DNA of 64,000 bases from Candidatus Cloacimonadota bacterium (lineage in GTDB: Bacteria; Cloacimonadota; Cloacimonadia; Cloacimonadales; TCS61). How positions within the stretch are numbered: position 1 is the stretch's first letter; every line of letters starts with the position of its first letter. Below are positions 12,563 to 50,616 of this stretch, piece by piece. A program made the position numbers and the translations under genes. The notes under the pieces were generated by a model. It was not told the DNA's origin, made no database searches, and saw nothing but the letters and a program-made list of their open reading frames with translations. The stretch covers positions 13,871 to 77,870 of the forward strand of contig JAUVLU010000003.1 of assembly GCA_030600585.1 (NCBI GenBank), given 5' to 3'.

Positions 12563-13897
12563 TTACACTATACCATGATCGAGCATTGCATTAGCAACTT
12601 TCATGAATCCGGCAATATTAGCACCTTTTACGTAATCTACAAAATCACCTTCGGTTCCGTATCTCACGCACTGTTCGTGAATATCTTTCATAATTTGGTG
12701 AAGCTTTTTATCAACTTCTGCACGTGTCCAATTGAAACGAAGACTGTTTTGAGACATTTCAAGTCCGCTTGTAGCAACGCCACCGGCATTAGCAGCTTTA
12801 CCCGGAGCATAAAGAATCTTAGCCTCTTGGAAAACTTCTACGGCTTCAGGTGTACATGGCATGTTCGCACCTTCAGAAACACAAGTACAGCCATTAGCAA
12901 TAAGCAGTTTTGCATCTTCTTCATCAAGTTCATTCTGAGTTGCGCAAGGAAGAGCAATGTCACATTTAATCTCCCAAGGATGTTTTCCTTCAAAGAAAGG
13001 AACATCAAATTCGTCAGCATAATCTTTTACTACGTCACGGTTTGAAGCTCTCATTTCTAACAAGAAATCAATTTTCTCACCTTTTATTCCATTTTTATCA
13101 TAAATGTAACCATCAGGACCGGAGATTGTAACAACTTTTCCACCTAATTCATCTACTTTTTGAACTACACCCCAGGCAACATTACCAAAACCTGAAACAG
13201 TTACGATCTTATCAGTGAAATTATCATCTTTAGTCTTTAACATTTCTTCTGCGAAATAAACATTTCCAAATCCGGTAGCTTCCGGTCTAATAAGACTTCC
13301 ACCCCAATTGATTCCTTTACCGGTAAGAACACCTGTAAATTCATTACGGAGTTTTTTATACATTCCAAAAAGGTAACCGATTTCACGACCGCCGACTCCA
13401 ATATCGCCTGCAGGAACATCTGTGTTAGGTCCAATATGACGATAAAGCTCAGCCATAAAATTCTGACAGAATCTCATAATTTCATTATTAGATTTTCCCT
13501 TAGGATCAAAATCTGATCCACCTTTACCACCACCCATTGGCAGAGTAGTAAGACTATTTTTAAAAATTTGCTCAAATCCCAAGAATTTAAGTATGCTAAG
13601 TGTTACACTTGGGTGAAAACGAAGACCACCTTTATAAGGTCCGATTGCACTATTGAATTCAATACGATAACCACGGTTAACATGAACTTCATCTTTGTCA
13701 TCTGTCCATGGAACTCTGAACATAATAGTTCTTTCCGGCTCAACTATCCTATCCATAATCTTGGCTTCTTTGAACTTGGGATTTGCTTCATAAATTTCCC
13801 ATACCGAATCGACAACTTCCGTAACAGCCTGAAGAAATTCAGGTTGTGCAGGATTTTTTACTGCAACTTGTTCGATGAACTTTTGCTTATCCATCAT
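12563..13897 (-). CDS. gdhB: Glutamate dehydrogenase, probably NAD-specific
   Basis: [26 protein letters not shown]; dinucleotide-binding region GFGNVAWG...SGPDG as in the NAD-GDH of Clostridium symbiosum. Confidence 0.88.
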   Translation of the reverse strand: MMDKQKFIEQVAVKNPAQPEFLQAVTEVVDSVWEIYEANPKFKEAKIMDRIVEPERTIMFRVPWTDDKDEVHVNRGYRIEFNSAIGPYKGGLRFHPSVTLSILKFLGFEQIFKNSLTTLPMGGGKGGSDFDPKGKSNNEIMRFCQNFMAELYRHIGPNTDVPAGDIGVGGREIGYLFGMYKKLRNEFTGVLTGKGINWGGSLIRPEATGFGNVYFAEEMLKTKDDNFTDKIVTVSGFGNVAWGVVQKVDELGGKVVTISGPDGYIYDKNGIKGEKIDFLLEMRASNRDVVKDYADEFDVPFFEGKHPWEIKCDIALPCATQNELDEEDAKLLIANGCTCVSEGANMPCTPEAVEVFQEAKILYAPGKAANAGGVATSGLEMSQNSLRFNWTRAEVDKKLHQIMKDIHEQCVRYGTEGDFVDYVKGANIAGFMKVANAMLDHGIV

Positions 13898-42642: not shown

Positions 42643-44703
42643 ATGGATATTAAAAAATTTAGAAATATCGGGATCAGCGCTCACATAGATTCCGGCAAAA
42701 CAACATTAGCAGAGCGGATATTATATTATTGTAACAAAATATATCGGATTGGTGAAGTTCGTGGAAAAAACGGCGTGGGAGCAACTATGGATTCCATGGA
42801 GCTTGAAAAAGAACGAGGGATCACGATTGCATCTGCTGCCACAAATGTAAGATGGAAAGGATATAACCTTAACGTTATCGATACTCCCGGACATGTTGAT
42901 TTTACTATCGAAGTTGAAAATGCACTTCGTGTTTTGGACGGTGCAGTACTCGTTCTCTGCGGAGTCAGCGGAGTTCAGTCTCAGTCGATTACAGTCGATA
43001 GGCAATTAAAAAGATATAAAGTTCCCCACATCGCATTTATAAATAAATTGGATAGAGTTGGAGCCGATCCGGAAAAAGTTAAGGATCAACTGTGTGAAAA
43101 ACTTGATCATAATGCAGTTTTAATGCAGATTCCAATTGGACTGGAAGAGAACTTTGAAGGTATTATCGACCTTATTTCCCGAAAGGCAAGACACTTTACA
43201 GGACCAAAAGGAGAACAGGTAAAAGAAACTGAGATCCCTGCCGAATATATAGATAAAACTGAAGAAATGCGAGAAGAGATGATCGATGCTGTTTCTATGT
43301 TTAGCGATGATCTGGCAGAAGCATTTTTAGATGGAAATGAAACTGAAGAAATGATCATTGAAGCTGTAAGAAAAGCTACGATCGCCATGGAAATGACACC
43401 TGTTTTTATGGGCTCTGCATTTAAGAATAAAGGTGTTCAATTACTTCTCGATGCGGTTATCCGCTATCTTCCCGATCCAACAGAAGGTGTAAATATTGCA
43501 CATGATAAAGATGATAATATGAGAGATCTAAAACTTGTATCCGATCCTGAACTTCCGACTGTTGCATTGGCATTCAAATTGGAAAATCAACAATATGGTC
43601 AACTTACATATTTGCGTATCTACCAGGGTACATTATCTAAAGGATCTGATCTGAGAAATGCCAGAACCGGAAATAAAATAAAAGTGGGCAGACTTGTAAA
43701 AATGCACGCCGATAATATGGAAGATATCAAAAGTGCGAAGGCAGGTGATATTGTAGCTTTGTTTGGAATTGACTGTGCCTTGGGGGATACTTTTAATGGT
43801 GGAAACAACAACTATACAATGCGCGAATCCTATGTTCCAAAACCCATTATCTCTCTTGCCATCGGCATCAAAGATAGTAATGATCAGGATCAACTTTCCA
43901 AAGCACTATCAAGATTCACTAAAGAAGATCCAACCTTTAAAGCTAATGTCGATGAAGAAACCAATGAAACAATTGTTCATGGTATGGGTGAACTTCATTT
44001 GAATGTTTATATCGAAAGGATCAGAAGAGAATATGGCGTTGATCTGGAAGCTTGTGCACCTCAGGTTTCATATCGAGAAACCATTACCAAGGCAATTGAA
44101 TTTGATTATATTCATAAAAAGCAATCCGGCGGACGTGGTCAATTTGCACGTGTTAAAGGGATTTTAACGCATTCGGGAAAAGATGAAAATATTTTCAGAG
44201 ATAAGGTGCGTGGTGGTAATATTCCAAGTCAATTTATTCCTGGTTGTGAAAAAGGATTTTTCTCTGTACTACAAAAAGGAGAGCTTGCCGGATTTCCGGT
44301 TGTTGGCGTAAAAATGACTTTGGATGATGGTGATTTTCATACTGTTGATTCCTCACAGCTTGCCTTTGAAGTTGCAACAAGAAATGCATTTAAAAAGAAT
44401 TACCGAAGAGCTAAACCCATTATTCTGGAGCCTGTAATGAAAGTTTCTGTGGAAACTCCTTCGGAATTCCGCGGGAATATCATGGCAATAATCAACCAGA
44501 ATAGAGGTCTCGTCTCAGATACGGTCATCGATGATAATTTTACGCGAATAGATTCGGAAATGCCGCTCTCAGAAACCTTCGGACTTGCTACACAATTCAG
44601 ATCTGTAACTCAGGGTAAAGCAGATTTCACAATGGAATTCAGTGAATATAAAGCAGTTCCGAAAAGTATTGAAGAAGAAGTTTTGAAGGCACGAGAGAAA
44701 TAG
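42643..44703 (+). CDS. fusA: Elongation factor G, stand-alone copy
   Basis: [44 protein letters not shown]; no rpsL/rpsG/tuf neighbours. Confidence 0.94.
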
Positions 44704-44834
44704 AGTAAGAAAGAATTTGAAATTTGAAATGAGGAATTATAAATTTATAATTCCTTAGTCTTTATTATACAATTCTTATAAATAAATGTATTTATTTATA
44801 ACAAAACAAAAATCTATTAATCTTATCGAATCTC

Positions 44835-44870
44835 TTGACAAAAATTTATGACTGGTCATTTTTGACCAGT
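44835..44870 (+). promoter_or_regulatory. TTGACA -35 element and an operator-like palindrome in front of the nuclease cluster
   Basis: TTGACA at 44835-44840; perfect ACTGGTCA-TTTT-TGACCAGT at 44851-44870; GGAGGAG RBS at 44878. Confidence 0.6.
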
Positions 44871-44886
44871 ATTGATTGGAGGAGTT

Positions 44887-45225
44887 ATGGAATATGATCC
44901 ATGGAAATTTATAAAATTAGCTGAAAGTAATCTTGGGAAGCAACTATGGAATTTCCTGAATGAACATGACAATTTAATTAGAATGGAAACTGCTACCGAT
45001 TTAAAAAAACCTGCAGTAAGAGCTTTAACAAACCAATTATTAAGCAGATTTGGTGAGCAAGTAAAAGAAATGAGGGTGAAACAAATGATAGGACACATGG
45101 TGAAACATATAATGAAAGAAAGAGAATATGAAGTAGATCAGCGAGATGTTTTGGTAAACGACGGATTATTTAATAAAGCATCTCGTTATCGTAAAAATGA
45201 TGAACCCAAAGGAGTGATTCAATGA
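44887..45225 (+). CDS. Small hypothetical protein (112 aa), first gene of the nuclease cluster
   Basis: Strong RBS; LWNFL...RMETA...RVKQMIGHMV...ASRY; ATGA overlap with the next gene. Confidence 0.8.
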   Translation: MEYDPWKFIKLAESNLGKQLWNFLNEHDNLIRMETATDLKKPAVRALTNQLLSRFGEQVKEMRVKQMIGHMVKHIMKEREYEVDQRDVLVNDGLFNKASRYRKNDEPKGVIQ

Positions 45226-47228
45226 ATAAAATAGGATTTGCAACTAATAGTAAATTAATAAAACAATTTATTAAAAAATGGTGTTTGAAAAATTATAAAC
45301 CGTTTGTTGAATTAAAATCTTTGCATAATATTGATTTTAACCAGTTTCGATACCTTATTATTGATCCGCTTATTACTACTAAAACTGAATGGAAAAAATT
45401 TATTTCCCGTTACAAAAGACAGGGTTACTTAGTTCCTTTGTTAATAGTGTATGAATATCTCGAAAAATTTATTGATTTTGATGCAGAGATTCCACGTAAT
45501 ATAGATGTAGTGTGGTGCAGATTTCCTTATGACGAATTTGATTTTATAGAGGAAAGATTATCCGCTCTAGGGGATAGTTGGAAAATCTATTCCACTAAAG
45601 TAAAAAGACATATGGCAGAATATAAAAAAGAAAGACTTCAAATTTGTGAAGATGGAGTATTCAAACAAAATAAGAAACCTTACAAACATATTCTTCCCGA
45701 GAACTTGGAAAAATTAAATATTATTGAAACTTTCAGAAAGGAATTTTGGGATTATTCATTTATGAATGAAGATATTAAATTGCATACAGGTTTTCATCAT
45801 TTGAATTCGTCTCAAGCATTGTGTTTTAATCTTTTCTATCCACTAATTAATGAATTTGTAATTTCATATCAATATAGGAATTATGATTTTATAAAATGCT
45901 TTTTAAATATTATCTTGAAGGACTTTTATTACCACTATAAGGGGATGACAGATATAAATTTCTTAAACCCTGCTCAATTAAATTTTGAAAAAATACTGGA
46001 TAAAAAAGAACAAACTAATTTTGATTTTTATCTTGAATATAAAAATAATATAAAAATTCTTTTTGAGATCAAGTATACAGAAGAATCATTTGGAACTGCA
46101 AAAAACTCTAAATCGCATGAAGATAAATTTAACAAAATTTATAAGCCAAGACTTATTAATAAAATCCAACCAGAGTATTGTAGTTTTAATGAAAATTTTA
46201 GGAAGAATTATCAAATAATTAGAAACCTATCATACATCGATGATAAAACGTATGTTGTGTTTTTATATCCTAATAAAAATGAAAACATCAAAAACAAAAA
46301 TAAAACAATTATTGAGGATATTATTTTACCAAAGTATCGAAATCACATAAAGATACTTTATCTTGAAGATATGGTTGAACATCTTTTGAATGGAAAATAC
46401 TCTTCTGCAAAAATCCATACTCATTATCAGATGTTTAAAGAAAAATATCTATTAGATGAAGATGTGGACTACAATTATTTTAACAACTTAGATGAAGCTT
46501 TATATTTTCCGGAAATCGTTACTACTTTAGATTTAAGCCATCAATACAGAACTAAATTCCCAATGGAAATATTCACACTTAAGAATTTACAAAAATTAGA
46601 TCTCTCTGGAAATGAGTTTGAGAATATTCCTAATGAAATATGGAATTATGAAGATTTAGTAGAACTTTCTTTAAATATATCAAAAATTCCAAAAGAGATA
46701 AATAATTTAAAGAGATTAAAACTACTTGAGATTTTCGGCAAAGATTTGAAAAAAATTCCAGACGAAATTTCGGAACTAGCATTATTAGAGACTCTTATTA
46801 TAAGTAATTGTGAAATATGTAAATTACCGGAAAGTATCGAAAATCTTACTTCATTAAGGTGCATTAGATTGATGAACTTACCTGATCTTGATTTGATTGA
46901 TACACTTAAGAAATTATCATTACTCAAATATCTTGAGGTTCTTGATTTATCTGGAAATGAACTTTATGATTTACCACCTGAAATCTCATTACTTCAAAAA
47001 TTAAATGAATTAGATCTTAGTTTGAATAATTTTTCCAAAATACCTGAAGCAATTTTCAAGTTAATTGAATTAACCGATCTGAGCCTTGAAAGCAATAAGC
47101 TCGAATCTATAGAAAAACAAATTACAAAATTAATAAACCTCACTTGTTTAGATCTTAGAAGTAATAACATTATTAATTTACCTAAGGAAATTCATACATT
47201 ACCATATCTTAAACATTTGATTTTGTAA
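45222..47228 (+). CDS. PD-(D/E)xK nuclease (PGN_0703-like) fused to C-terminal leucine-rich repeats, with an uncharacterised N-terminal alpha/beta domain
   Basis: HHLNSSQALCFNLF, TNFD, EIKYTE, YQIIRN; ~10 LxxLxLxxNxxxxIPxxI repeats from ~46520. Confidence 0.8.
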   Translation: MNKIGFATNSKLIKQFIKKWCLKNYKPFVELKSLHNIDFNQFRYLIIDPLITTKTEWKKFISRYKRQGYLVPLLIVYEYLEKFIDFDAEIPRNIDVVWCRFPYDEFDFIEERLSALGDSWKIYSTKVKRHMAEYKKERLQICEDGVFKQNKKPYKHILPENLEKLNIIETFRKEFWDYSFMNEDIKLHTGFHHLNSSQALCFNLFYPLINEFVISYQYRNYDFIKCFLNIILKDFYYHYKGMTDINFLNPAQLNFEKILDKKEQTNFDFYLEYKNNIKILFEIKYTEESFGTAKNSKSHEDKFNKIYKPRLINKIQPEYCSFNENFRKNYQIIRNLSYIDDKTYVVFLYPNKNENIKNKNKTIIEDIILPKYRNHIKILYLEDMVEHLLNGKYSSAKIHTHYQMFKEKYLLDEDVDYNYFNNLDEALYFPEIVTTLDLSHQYRTKFPMEIFTLKNLQKLDLSGNEFENIPNEIWNYEDLVELSLNISKIPKEINNLKRLKLLEIFGKDLKKIPDEISELALLETLIISNCEICKLPESIENLTSLRCIRLMNLPDLDLIDTLKKLSLLKYLEVLDLSGNELYDLPPEISLLQKLNELDLSLNNFSKIPEAIFKLIELTDLSLESNKLESIEKQITKLINLTCLDLRSNNIINLPKEIHTLPYLKHLIL

Positions 47229-47279
47229 AGTTGATATTGTAATGTTTAAAAAATTTAAACTTAATGGGGAGAGAATAAG

Positions 47280-48008
47280 ATGACTAAAAAAAACATTATT
47301 GATGAATTGATGAAAGAGTTAGGTGATATAAATAATTTGTATAATGCTAAATGCATTGCAAGAAGAGGTAAGACTAATGATACTAAAGATTTCTACACTG
47401 AAGTAATTGCACATGAATTATTAAGAAACCTAACGAAATTTGAAAACATAAAACCAATTACAAGAACAAAACCTTACTGCAGAGAAAATCACTTTAACAT
47501 TGAATTTAACTATAATGAAAGCAATAGAGATGAAGAAATTTTTGCAAAAAGAATTACCGGATTAAATATCGATGAAATCGGAGTGATTTTAGATTATCAA
47601 ATACCCTTAAAAAATTCAAGGGATGACAAAGGTGTTGGAAAAATTGATTTGATTTCTTATAATAAGAAAAATAATAATCTGCATTTAATCGAGTTAAAAT
47701 ACAACAATAATGATGAAACATTACTTAGAGCTGTTCTTGAAGCATACACTTATTATAAAAGAGCAGATAAAGATAAACTCATGAATGACTATTTGAGTAG
47801 TAAATTTATATTATCAAAAGTGTTATTAAAATCAAATCTAAGTGATATAAATGTTATTCCAACTGTATTAGTAGTGCCTGTATGTAATCCATCTCAAGAA
47901 TTAACTGAAATGGAATTTGGAAAAAGACCAAAACTAAAAACACTATCCTTAGCATTAGGAATTGAATTTTTTACATTAGATTTAAGTATTCTTAGAGTTG
48001 AAATCTAA
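47280..48008 (+). CDS. Putative PD-(D/E)xK nuclease
   Basis: DYQIPLK...GKIDLI...LIELK...LLRAVLEAYTY (E/Q...D...ExK arrangement). Confidence 0.7.
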   Translation: MTKKNIIDELMKELGDINNLYNAKCIARRGKTNDTKDFYTEVIAHELLRNLTKFENIKPITRTKPYCRENHFNIEFNYNESNRDEEIFAKRITGLNIDEIGVILDYQIPLKNSRDDKGVGKIDLISYNKKNNNLHLIELKYNNNDETLLRAVLEAYTYYKRADKDKLMNDYLSSKFILSKVLLKSNLSDINVIPTVLVVPVCNPSQELTEMEFGKRPKLKTLSLALGIEFFTLDLSILRVEI

Positions 48009-48027
48009 ATTTGAAAAGGAGGAAGAA

Positions 48028-48816
48028 ATGTTTCATTTATATAAAAAAGCTAATTATTCAGGAAAGCTTAAGACTCAATTAATTGAATTAGGAATAAAGT
48101 ATGCAAAGAACCATAATATTACAAATTACAAAAAGCATAAAAGTGCTCTTATTTTTGATATTAAGGATAATATCATAACATCGTCATATAAGCCCATAAA
48201 GAGTAGTAATGATTGGGAAAAAAGATTAGAAAAACCTCATACCCATTTTCCAAATTCAAATGTTAAAGAATTAAGCTCTTCAAATAGTTCAGATGCACTT
48301 CTAATGAATATTTTTTGCCATCCAGAATTGAATAAATGGAAATCGATCAAAAAATTATTTAATCAAGTAGAAATTAAACCCAATTTTGGTTACAAACCAG
48401 GAGTTGAAAAAGATGGTGGGAAACCGGATGATACTGAAATTGATATGAAATTAAAAAATATGTATATTGAAGCGAAATTGACTGAATCTGATTTTACTAA
48501 AAAAGATAAAAGTATTGTAGAATCTTACGATAAGTTTGAGGAAGTCTTTGAAAAAAATTATTTAGAGCAAGATTCCAATAAATATTATAAATATCAGTTA
48601 ATTAGAAATATTTTAGCAGCTTATCAAGATGGTGTAAACTTTATCCTTTTATGTGATGCAAGAAGACCAGATTTAATTAGGGATTTTTATTTAACTGTAA
48701 GATGTGTTAAAAATGTTTCATTGAGATCGAGATGTAACATAATTTTTTGGCAGGAAGTATGTAAATGTGTTGGAGGGAATTTAAAACCATTTTTAATAGA
48801 AAAATATGGTTTATAA
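48028..48816 (+). CDS. Putative PD-(D/E)xK nuclease, related to the nuclease domain of 45222-47228
   Basis: SSDALLMNIF, TEID, EAKLTE, YQLIRN; ATG at 48028 after AAGGAGG. Confidence 0.75.
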   Translation: MFHLYKKANYSGKLKTQLIELGIKYAKNHNITNYKKHKSALIFDIKDNIITSSYKPIKSSNDWEKRLEKPHTHFPNSNVKELSSSNSSDALLMNIFCHPELNKWKSIKKLFNQVEIKPNFGYKPGVEKDGGKPDDTEIDMKLKNMYIEAKLTESDFTKKDKSIVESYDKFEEVFEKNYLEQDSNKYYKYQLIRNILAAYQDGVNFILLCDARRPDLIRDFYLTVRCVKNVSLRSRCNIIFWQEVCKCVGGNLKPFLIEKYGL

Positions 48817-48831
48817 ATTATCAAAATAATT

Positions 48832-50616
48832 CTACTCCCACTCAATAGTTCCCGGTGGTTTGGTGGTTATATCATAAAGCAGATTTCCCGCATCGTCAAT
48901 ATTTCTAATCAAATTTGAAAGTCTTAGAAATTCTGTAAAATCCATTTCATACACACTGGCACTCATTGCATCGAATGAACAAACAGGTCTCATTACATAA
49001 CACAACTTGTTATCAGTGTTTCTTAATGGCAATTGAACAACCGGCATCTGCCAGATCTCTTTTATATCATCAGTTCTTTTCCGTAAAACCGCATCAACAT
49101 TTCTCAATTCATCAAGGTTGTGTTTTTCTAAAAATAGTTTTTCCAGATGCAAATCATCAACAGGATTCAAAGAAAATATAAGCCTGTTTACCGTTTTTAA
49201 TTTATTTATTACTTTAGAGGAACATTCATTTATCACTTTCCAATCTGCTTCGATATCTTTTTTGAACCATATAATCGCCGGATGATGATAAGTGCGAAAA
49301 TCACCCTGAACGCCTACACTTTTTATTGGAAGAATTTTGCCTTCCATTTTGAATTCACTCAGGATTTTATTCATAAATTTTTCTTCTTTTGTATAATCAA
49401 TTTGTGATTTTGTTTTATCCGAGCAAATAACTCTGATTGCCAGTCCCGGACCCGGGAATGGATGACGATGAACAAGTTTGTGCGGAAGCCCGAGTTCTTC
49501 TCCGAGTTTGCGGACTTCATCTTTATAAAGCTCTTTAATCGGCTCGATGATCTTTCCTTCCGAAATCAGTTTTTCAATTTCATCAACCCGATTGTGATGA
49601 GTTTTTATCAGAGCTGCTTTATCCGTTGAACCACTTTCTATTGTATCAGGATAAATAGTTCCCTGCACCAAAATAAATTCTTCTTCTTTTGAAAGTTTTT
49701 CCAGTTCCTCATTGGCAATATCAACAAATAATTTACCAATAATTTTCCGCTTTTCTTCAGGTTCGACAATTCCTTCCAGTTCTTTTAAATATAAGTCTTC
49801 CGCTTCGATTATTTTGATATTTTTAAAATTCAATTCTCGGAAATGTTCCATTATTTCTTTAGATTCATCCTTGCGCATAAAACCGGTATCGATGTGAATG
49901 GAATATACATTTTCGTTCCCAACAGCTTGAATGCAAAGCTCAAGAGCAACCAACGAATCCACCCCACCGGAAAGCAGCAGAACCAGCTTCCTGCCTTTTA
50001 CTTCGTTTCGAATTTCATCTGTTAATTGTTGTTTAAAGTTCTTCACTTTCCAATTACGTTCTTGAGTGCATAATTCTACGAAATTATCCAGCATTTTCAT
50101 TCCGTTCTCGGTATGCGTAACTTCAGGATGAAATTGGAATCCGAAATACTTATCAGACTCATAAGCAACGATCTTTACGGAATTAGTAGAAGCGGTTATT
50201 CGGAAGCTTTGCGGCAAAGAACAAACGTGATCTCCGTGACTCATCCAGACTTTTTGCTCTGTATTTAATTTTCTAAAAAGAACGGAATTTTTATTATCGC
50301 AGGTTATGGAAGTAAAACCATATTCTTTGTTTTCCCCACTTTCTATCTTACCGCCTACCATTTTTGCCAGAAGTTGATGTCCGTAACATATCCCTAAAAT
50401 AGGAATTTCATTTGTTGCTATATCAAATTTAATTCGATATGCATCATCTGCGTTTACTGATTGCGGACCTCCCGAGAAAATTATTCCTACAACGTCATTG
50501 TCTTTTCCGAAATTCTCCGGATTTATTATCTCACTATAAACACCCAGATCACGGATTCTGCGCGCGATGAGATGAGTGTATTGTCCACCGAAATCAATTA
50601 TTATTATTTTTTCCAT
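48832..50616 (-). CDS. guaA: GMP synthase (glutamine-hydrolysing)
   Basis: IDFGGQY, GICYGHQL, QFHPEV, SGGVDS, IKTHHN, RHPFPGPGL, KPPGTIEWE. Confidence 0.95.
   Translation of the reverse strand: MEKIIIIDFGGQYTHLIARRIRDLGVYSEIINPENFGKDNDVVGIIFSGGPQSVNADDAYRIKFDIATNEIPILGICYGHQLLAKMVGGKIESGENKEYGFTSITCDNKNSVLFRKLNTEQKVWMSHGDHVCSLPQSFRITASTNSVKIVAYESDKYFGFQFHPEVTHTENGMKMLDNFVELCTQERNWKVKNFKQQLTDEIRNEVKGRKLVLLLSGGVDSLVALELCIQAVGNENVYSIHIDTGFMRKDESKEIMEHFRELNFKNIKIIEAEDLYLKELEGIVEPEEKRKIIGKLFVDIANEELEKLSKEEEFILVQGTIYPDTIESGSTDKAALIKTHHNRVDEIEKLISEGKIIEPIKELYKDEVRKLGEELGLPHKLVHRHPFPGPGLAIRVICSDKTKSQIDYTKEEKFMNKILSEFKMEGKILPIKSVGVQGDFRTYHHPAIIWFKKDIEADWKVINECSSKVINKLKTVNRLIFSLNPVDDLHLEKLFLEKHNLDELRNVDAVLRKRTDDIKEIWQMPVVQLPLRNTDNKLCYVMRPVCSFDAMSASVYEMDFTEFLRLSNLIRNIDDAGNLLYDITTKPPGTIEWE

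Follow-up and report, generated by a model that had tools for sequence, protein, structure and literature searches.

Within a 64,000-nucleotide stretch of the genome of a Candidatus Cloacimonadota bacterium (positions 13,871 to 77,870 of contig JAUVLU010000003.1, hereafter 'the window', to which all coordinates below refer), four co-oriented genes occupy 4 kb of the forward strand with a GC content of 26.3%, against approximately 35% in the flanks. In order, the genes of this cassette encode a small protein of 112 residues ('gene A'; 44887..45225), a fusion protein of 668 residues (45222..47228) that is the principal subject of this report, a protein of 242 residues (47280..48008), and a protein of 272 residues (47998..48816) that is a stand-alone member of the same nuclease family as the fusion. 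The fusion gene is an open reading frame (ORF) uninterrupted from its ATG to its TAA codon, and encodes three modules that together account for all 668 residues: an N-terminal segment ('module B'), a central PD-(D/E)XK nuclease domain of the REase-ARP (or PGN_0703) family, and a C-terminal domain of leucine-rich repeats (LRRs). Searches of Pfam, NCBIfam, PADLOC and PHROGs identified no nucleoside triphosphatase (NTPase), receiver or other further domain in the protein; an earlier description of the locus, generated by a model from the sequence alone (the 'preliminary description'), had likewise noted that no NTPase is present, and no such family was matched in Pfam, NCBIfam or PADLOC. Taken together, the analyses described below indicate that the fusion is a genuine, functional and horizontally acquired gene, joining three modules that elsewhere occur separately.

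The nuclease domain (residues 121-412; 45582..46457) is recognized by Pfam model PF22558 (REase-ARP) with an E-value of 1.8e-39 and a score of 136.4 bits (cut-off 27), the match extending over residues 130-410 and over positions 3-270 of the 270-position profile; a weaker match was obtained to PDDEXK_13 (6.6e-07). The PGN_0703-like label that had been given to this domain is correct, because its nuclease-only relatives carry the NCBI name 'PGN_0703 family putative restriction endonuclease'. The candidate catalytic residues are D268 (46023-46025), E282 (46065-46067) and K284 (46071-46073), with further conserved positions at E256 and at Y330-Q331-x-x-R334-N335. Across an alignment of 40 sequences, no variation occurs at E256, E282, K284, Q331 or R334, and at least 90% of the sequences retain D268, such that D268, E282 and K284 correspond to the D...ExK signature of PD-(D/E)XK enzymes. 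In the AlphaFold model, the predicted local distance difference test score (pLDDT) of the domain is mostly 80-96, with values of 66-68 at residues 231-250, and strands at residues 250-255, 269-273 and 278-283 place D268 and the E282/K284 pair on strands adjacent in sequence order, an arrangement compatible with a PD-(D/E)XK core. All Foldseek matches to the full model were LRR proteins, so that the nuclease domain obtained none, and a phmmer search of the PDB with the domain returned no match. Nuclease activity is a prediction from conserved sequence features.

A linker of approximately five residues separates the nuclease from the LRR domain (residues 418-668; 46473..47225), which opens with an N-cap, FNNLDEALYFPEIV, typical of bacterial LRRs. 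Strands of the LxxLxL type begin at residues 433, 456, 479, 499, 522, 545, 571, 594, 617, 640 and 663, so delimiting 10 full units (counted both by hand and by script) that are mostly 23 residues in length, the exceptions being unit 3 (20 residues) and unit 6 (26 residues); the first strand lies at nucleotide 46518, in agreement with the approximately ten repeats from about 46520 that had been reported. The final unit is a bare strand of nine residues, LPYLKHLIL, followed directly by the stop codon and without a C-cap. The domain matched Pfam LRR_14 at 5.5e-26 (91.6 bits against a cut-off of 40) and LRR_8 at 7.8e-19 (67.6 bits against a cut-off of 27), with LRR_4 also above its cut-off, and was modelled at pLDDT 83-98. 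Its leading Foldseek match was the Leptospira protein LIC11098 (4u08_A; E 4.6e-14), followed by SHOC2 and LRRC8 (LRRC8A).

The preliminary description regarded the end of the ORF at KHLIL as abrupt, and suggested that the LRR tail might be clipped or the fusion recent; it also named an assembly chimera at the junction as something that would refute its reading. Homologues with the same nuclease-LRR organization were found at 82% identity (P0002, also of 668 residues), 81% (P0003), 87% (P0004, a partial sequence) and 46% (P0005, 560 residues), and five distinct proteins share the nuclease-LRR junction, the repeat layout and the stop. The separate assemblies concerned are ERZ26661670, SRR22302362, SRR21487742, JGI 3300042087, GCA_023145095 and ERZ10759774/ERR6290773, and the occurrence of the same junction on contigs from at least five other samples contradicts a chimera. 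Nor is the tail clipped: P0002-P0005 all end on the same last strand and share the irregular units 3 and 6, at 46% identity the unit count of P0005 is unchanged, with both irregular ones in place, and the 51-nucleotide spacer to the next gene contains no further LRR coding sequence. Thus the protein does stop at ...LPYLKHLIL*, as had been noticed, but this end is not abnormal and is conserved in homologues. Similarly, only a few Cloacimonadota-like sequences carry the fusion, as a recent origin would imply, but it predates a divergence to 46% identity. Pairwise comparisons by the Nei-Gojobori method gave ratios of nonsynonymous to synonymous substitution (dN/dS) that were lowest in the nuclease (0.13-0.20), intermediate in the LRR domain (0.20-0.28) and highest in module B (0.29-0.48), with dS values that were alike across the modules (0.25-0.63). 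The similar dS and the purifying selection on all modules (dN/dS 0.13-0.48) indicate a single, co-evolving functional gene.

The N-terminal segment, module B (residues 1-119; 45222..45578), is homologous to free-standing proteins of 115-128 residues. A phmmer search with residues 1-128 against 1.84 billion representative sequences returned only four other proteins (P0148-P0151; E 4e-49 to 6e-07), all of them free-standing and 115-123 residues in length, and a profile search added two more relatives (P0153 and P0154). Conserved positions comprise G5, C21, I-x-x-P-L, W57-x-K-F, I-V-Y and P-x(4)-V-x-W. In one locus (L012), a separate module B gene (P0150) lies between a gene of the A family and a 274-residue REase-ARP gene, and that nuclease begins exactly at the position aligned to residue 123 of the fusion, 11 nucleotides beyond the module B stop; this gene order and alignment indicate that the N-terminal segment was acquired by fusion of neighbouring genes of a pre-existing A-B-REase operon. 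At three further loci (L013-L015), a module B homologue directly follows gene A. The nuclease-LRR homologue of L004 is without module B altogether, and that of L006 is without approximately its first 50 residues, with a gene A there that has a different C-terminal tail (L006:4158-6469), an arrangement that suggests a deletion across the A/B boundary. Judged from these sequences, module B is a real and separately evolving module of about 119 residues, and one that, on the evidence of L004 and L006, is dispensable in evolution.

This segment had been described as a degenerate receiver, and the four motifs on which that description relied are all present: KIGFAT (residues 3-8), YLIID (44-48), PLLIVY (72-77) and RFPYD (99-103). 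The receiver assignment itself gains no support from the following comparisons. None of six B-family sequences matched any Pfam model, including Response_reg (PF00072), at E<=10, and a sequence profile search of the PDB with module B gave nothing meaningful at the same threshold. When the family was compared by hhalign with an alignment of nine receiver domains taken from the same genome, the resulting probability was 0.1% (E 0.4). The candidate aspartate of YLIID is replaced by asparagine in three of the six aligned sequences (P0149, P0150 and P0151), RFPYD is not conserved, and the alignment of six contains neither a conserved lysine near the C-terminal strands nor a conserved threonine pattern; the invariant residue types are instead G, C, I, P, L, W, K, F, I, Y, P, V and W. 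The 'receiver-like' reading of the sequence is consequently unsupported. AlphaFold, applied to the full protein, assigned pLDDT values below 50 to residues 1-51 and 63-120, where only three alignment rows were informative, and the hydrophobic periodicity of the module suggests a small beta-alpha-beta domain. A possible relationship to the approximately 170-residue N-terminal region of Clostridium PGN_0703 proteins was considered and rejected, the sole BLASTP match (E 0.006) lying at a domain boundary; that Clostridium region displays, by eye, P-loop-like patterns.

The last four nucleotides of gene A are also the first four of the fusion gene (ATGA). The start of gene A is placed at the ATG at 44887, as in its homologues (the ORF list gives a TTG at 44872), and its product carries the motifs W.FL, IRMETA, KQMIGHM and ATRY. 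It belongs to no annotated family, having no match in Pfam, NCBIfam, PADLOC or PHROGs, and neither a WYL nor a recognized helix-turn-helix (HTH) domain in Pfam. A copy precedes every nuclease-LRR homologue, at 65-84% identity, and at L004, where it is 65% identical while the fusion is 46% identical, gene A is the better conserved of the two. Its AlphaFold model (pLDDT 92) contains five helices and a beta-hairpin and has no significant match in the PDB or BFVD; the weak top matches recur among winged-helix and HTH proteins. From those matches and the helices-plus-hairpin topology of the model, gene A is probably a winged-helix-like regulator. Just before its GGAGG ribosome-binding site lies a candidate operator (44836..44870), in which the sequence shows a TTGACA box and, downstream of it, a perfect inverted repeat, ACTGGTCA-tttt-TGACCAGT (44851-44870); the box and a GGTCA-N-TGACC core also occur ahead of gene A at L001, L004 and L006 and are thereby common to the four nuclease-LRR loci, and the palindrome may be a site of regulation.

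A scan of 185,579 species genomes for the A family yielded 84 relatives, of which 80 were kept, from hosts that include Alphaproteobacteria, Desulfobacterota, Cloacimonadota and Verrucomicrobiota among others; the nearest named records for A-family neighbours are Candidatus Cloacimonadota metagenome-assembled genomes (MAGs). Members of the family are approximately 105 residues in length, and longer (approximately 190-210 residues) in Proteobacteria. The association of the family with defence was assessed at loci L007, L031, L035, L053, L026 and L048, together with the 80 genome loci L018-L097. Among the downstream proteins chosen for comparison with PADLOC, those encoded directly downstream of A-family genes on the same strand included Dsr1 (E=0), HamB of the Hachiman system (E=0), Gabija GajA (1e-241) and GajB (2e-215), Ppl and a type III methyltransferase, besides a HamA/Avs-like fragment. 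Gene A thereby behaves like regulators that co-localize with many defence systems, and this circumstantial association is the strongest argument for a defence role of the fusion. A parallel can be drawn with the WYL-type regulators BrxR and CapW: gene A is also small, also lies directly upstream of unrelated defence systems and is also accompanied by a conserved palindrome, but differs in having no WYL or recognized HTH domain and no significant fold match. The A family may represent a general regulator of defence islands and, as such, a useful bait gene.

The third gene of the cassette encodes a PD-(D/E)XK-like motif (GKIDLIS...LHLIELK) and matches Pfam only below threshold (DUF234). Its product, which falls in no assigned family, shares 64% identity with an ORF linked to an A-family gene in another Cloacimonadota MAG (L025), and at L001 a gene of 279 residues, with a motif-level match, occupies the same position. 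The fourth gene, a second REase-ARP protein (PF22558, 4e-36) in which the D...E-A-K residues are present, is a distant paralogue of the fusion nuclease domain, with 26% identity in the alignment; a scan of the organism's own genome found exactly two REase-ARP copies, namely these two. At L025 (4585-7389), an ORF resembling the 242-residue protein (apparently truncated at its N-terminus) and a stand-alone REase-ARP gene occur together with A-family genes. The second half of the cassette (47280-48816) may thus be a module of its own. Among the four cassette genes, searches of Pfam, NCBIfam and PADLOC identified no methyltransferase.

The cassette is flanked by convergent genes for an EF-G-like protein and guaA. 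In two genomes of the same genus (G186 and G185), these flanking genes are directly adjacent, representing an empty site, and in another (G190) a single small ORF lies between them. The corresponding slot (window 44703-48832) is occupied in relatives by PadR with a HAAS/Sensor membrane protein, by an IS200-type Y1 transposase, or by a HEPN-MNT pair, the last of these in the slot of L001; the intergenic site is a variable hotspot in the genus. The fusion itself is present in one of 232 species-representative genomes of the phylum and in none of 13 same-genus genomes. Its low GC content, the empty sites and the patchy distribution identify the cassette as an accessory, horizontally mobile islet within that hotspot. 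Candidate target-site duplications or terminal repeats around the 4-kb insertion were sought, and none was convincing. The EF-G-like flanking gene (42643-44703) is one of three EF-G/TetM-like paralogues, the others being 42% and 34% identical to it (C88 and C48), a pattern common to all congeners.

The central 290 residues of the fusion hold the E, D, ExK and YQxxRN positions of the REase-ARP family. Among the best 80 of 394 relatives recovered in a metagenome scan, almost all are stand-alone proteins (approximately 266-330 residues) and none carries repeats, whereas LRRs occur in five sequences only; in further variants HNH_3/NUMOD4 is present, or the N-terminal region is an unrelated one. 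On the sequences at hand, fusion to LRRs is thus rare within the family, an offshoot with five known representatives. The neighbours of REase-ARP genes in the metagenome loci include BREX PglZ-BrxL, a KAP NTPase and ABC-type ATPases, and the A-B-REase set of L012 adjoins a type I/IIG restriction-modification system. A phage origin was considered and rejected: IMG/VR gives one weak match for REase-ARP and four for gene A, and the PHROG matches involve the LRRs only. From its neighbours and its near-absence from viral contigs, REase-ARP is taken to be a defence-island nuclease family whose activity is predicted only. Searches of the open-access literature returned nothing on the characterization of PGN_0703/REase-ARP proteins or on the meaning of 'ARP'.

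Several individual loci illustrate the contexts in which this family occurs. At L149 (411-6853), a stand-alone REase-ARP gene lies immediately after BREX PglZ and BrxL and overlaps the start of a gene for a 343-residue protein of no known function; REase-ARP may serve as a BREX accessory in some genomes. Within the phylum, an operon at L112 (1073-6686; G002:C54) consists of an A-family gene (234 residues, its tail weakly PAS-like), a 623-residue AAA ATPase, a 684-residue protein that combines PHP with a DNA-polymerase-III-alpha finger, and a REase-ARP protein of 320 residues, and adjoins a large helicase and restriction-modification-like cluster. At L114 (2694-4423), a protein with the PolIII finger only precedes REase-ARP. 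That the PolIII-alpha-like neighbour at L112 and L114 is the 'ARP' of the Pfam name is a guess; the four-gene cassette contains no PHP/PolIII-alpha-like gene.

The preliminary description proposed a sensor-effector design reminiscent of eukaryotic immune receptors, and the arrangement of an effector and LRRs in one polypeptide without an NTPase, in defence-like genomic company, is indeed what is found. Several known systems offer points of comparison. Avs proteins and other antiviral STAND and bNACHT systems also combine an effector nuclease and a repeat sensor in one polypeptide within defence islands, with a protein as the expected target of the repeats, but the fusion possesses no STAND/NACHT NTPase or P-loop domain, its nuclease being followed directly by the LRRs, and it matched no PADLOC Avs model; Avs sensors, moreover, are typically TPR-like, where the repeats of the fusion are LRRs. 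DSR2 has no nucleotide switch, its catalytic effector being joined straight to repeats that bind a phage protein. The fusion most resembles DSR2 and DSR1 in principle, as a single-chain effector and repeat sensor lacking an NTPase, but combines PD-(D/E)XK with LRRs rather than a SIR2 NADase with helical repeats, and has no sequence homology to them. LRRs are also attached to catalytic domains for recognition of substrates or partners in the IpaH/SspH LRR-E3 ligases (where the IpaH LRR is also autoinhibitory) and in Ccr4; their catalytic domains, organisms and roles differ from those of the fusion, so the analogy is mechanistic only. Type II restriction-modification differs in that the cassette, between its EF-G-like and guaA flanks, includes no cognate methyltransferase. 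The fusion therefore stands outside the receiver proteins, STAND/NLR proteins, type II restriction-modification and the systems modelled by PADLOC, whose defining sequence features it lacks. While plant and animal immune systems recognize pathogens chiefly through LRRs, these repeats have, to our knowledge, seldom been implicated in prokaryotic defence, and searches of open-access text found no description of a bacterial LRR-nuclease defence protein.

The interpretation that we favour, at slightly better than an even chance, is that the fusion is a defence nuclease independent of any NTPase, with cleavage controlled by an LRR domain that binds a protein, and that gene A regulates its transcription. 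In such a scheme, the product of the cassette would act as an anti-phage or anti-mobile-element nuclease without need of an NTPase switch. The LRR horseshoe, tied rigidly to the nuclease by its short linker, would bind a protein ligand, which could be a phage protein or a partner encoded by the host or the cassette; as the putative sensor, it would then govern the nuclease through relief of autoinhibition or through ligand-driven dimerization, whereupon DNA would be cut. Gene A would act on transcription of the cassette at the upstream palindromic site. The architecture, the conserved catalytic residues, the selection on all modules, the conservation of the fusion, the insertion of the islet and the defence-type neighbourhoods of A-family and REase-ARP genes are observed; we infer the nuclease activity, the LRR ligand, the direction of regulation and the role of gene A in this scheme, according to which the fusion is probably a rare kind of self-contained phage sensor-nuclease.

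A number of observations weigh against a defence sensor of this kind. With PADLOC-DB 2.0, none of the four cassette proteins matched any family at E<=1. The ten proteins downstream of A-family genes that were run against PADLOC were hand-picked rather than random, and Gabija, Hachiman and DSR1 function without gene A, such that its presence beside those systems is circumstantial. Neither LRR, A nor B was found near REase-ARP genes in the best 80 of the 394 loci, which indicates that the function of this family is independent of all three. Finally, pairwise differences on the concave face of the LRR domain reach 27%, against 19% at other non-scaffold positions, an excess that is weak and not significant (Fisher p=0.13 on variable-column counts), so that the presumed sensing surface gives no indication of an arms race, and the repeat layout is frozen across homologues, as would be expected of a fixed partner no less than of a phage ligand.

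These same properties give some weight to an alternative that we nonetheless consider unlikely, in which the LRR domain is no sensor of invaders and instead serves as a docking adaptor, either within a multi-nuclease complex formed with gene A and the 242- and 272-residue nucleases or for a host protein, with specificity arising from features of the DNA, as it does in restriction systems of types IV and II, and not from the sensing of a protein. The weight that we assign to it reflects the frozen layout (the number of repeats and both irregular repeats being kept down to 46% identity) and the non-significant change on the concave face, both of which fit a fixed partner. The close organization of the cassette, with three nuclease-type genes that are co-oriented and whose ORFs overlap or are closely spaced, and the recurrence of the 242-like and REase-ARP genes with gene A at L025 point in the same direction, and Ccr4 deadenylase, in which an LRR tethers a nuclease to its partners, furnishes an analogy. 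Against docking, L004 contains gene A and the fusion without further nuclease genes, so that the downstream nucleases are not obligatory partners, and the cassette encodes no methyltransferase. Less probable again is a selfish addiction module resembling a toxin-antitoxin pair, in which the nuclease would be a toxin, gene A or module B its antidote or repressor, and the islet itself the beneficiary of the resulting stability. The translational coupling of gene A and the fusion by their ATGA overlap, the stronger conservation of gene A at L004 and the HEPN-MNT pair in the same hotspot of L001 would all be accommodated by such a module; yet gene A accompanies unrelated effectors (SIR2/Dsr1, OLD/GajA, the HamB helicase and Ppl), a breadth unusual in a dedicated antitoxin but usual for a regulator; a conserved palindrome lies upstream of it, and toxin-antitoxin and abortive-infection functions are in any case not mutually exclusive.

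Two further explanations carry very little weight. It is most improbable that the protein is exported, or displayed at the surface, as an LRR effector or toxin bearing a nuclease, comparable to LRR-containing secreted effectors or polymorphic toxins. Partial matches to the NCBIfam models of XopAC, XopAE and XopL and of a Leptospira LRR adhesin, along with the Leptospira LRR proteins that are its nearest solved structures, might suggest as much, but those matches cover the repeats only and score 72-90 bits where the cut-offs are 450-1000; the N-terminus, MNKIGFATNSKLIKQFIKKW, has by eye no hydrophobic signal segment, Pfam identifies no secretion-tail domain, and the islet is of a defence type and shows no immunity-type gene pattern. 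Least credible of all is an artefact, whether an assembly chimera or a decaying pseudogene with a truncated LRR tail. While the assembly is a draft of 89 contigs, and the L006 homologue is missing the N-terminal part of module B, the junction and the stop are repeated in independent assemblies, purifying selection is evident and dS is uniform over the modules, the GC content is uniform over 45-49 kb, and the AlphaFold model is of high confidence across the nuclease-LRR junction.

The broader implications depend upon which of these descriptions applies. A more specific and ambitious form of the favoured reading, which we hold to be possible but doubtful, is that the fusion is an NTPase-free bacterial LRR immune receptor whose repeats bind a phage protein directly and license the attached PD-(D/E)XK nuclease, with the A family as a widespread and hitherto unrecognized regulator or co-sensor shared among Gabija, Hachiman, DSR1, Ppl and the present cassette. 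Should the LRR domain prove to dock the nuclease to a partner and nothing more, the protein would be a routine addition to the restriction-like repertoire. If the receptor description is true, the protein would be a minimal prokaryotic counterpart to LRR-based pathogen sensing, in which an effector is driven without an oligomerization switch, and, at 668 residues, would offer a small and easily mutated model of a repeat sensor gating a nuclease. The families themselves provide two reusable leads: REase-ARP is a family regularly found in defence islands, and A-family genes, which stand at the 5' end of numerous known defence systems in different phyla, are a possible bait for the discovery of new ones.

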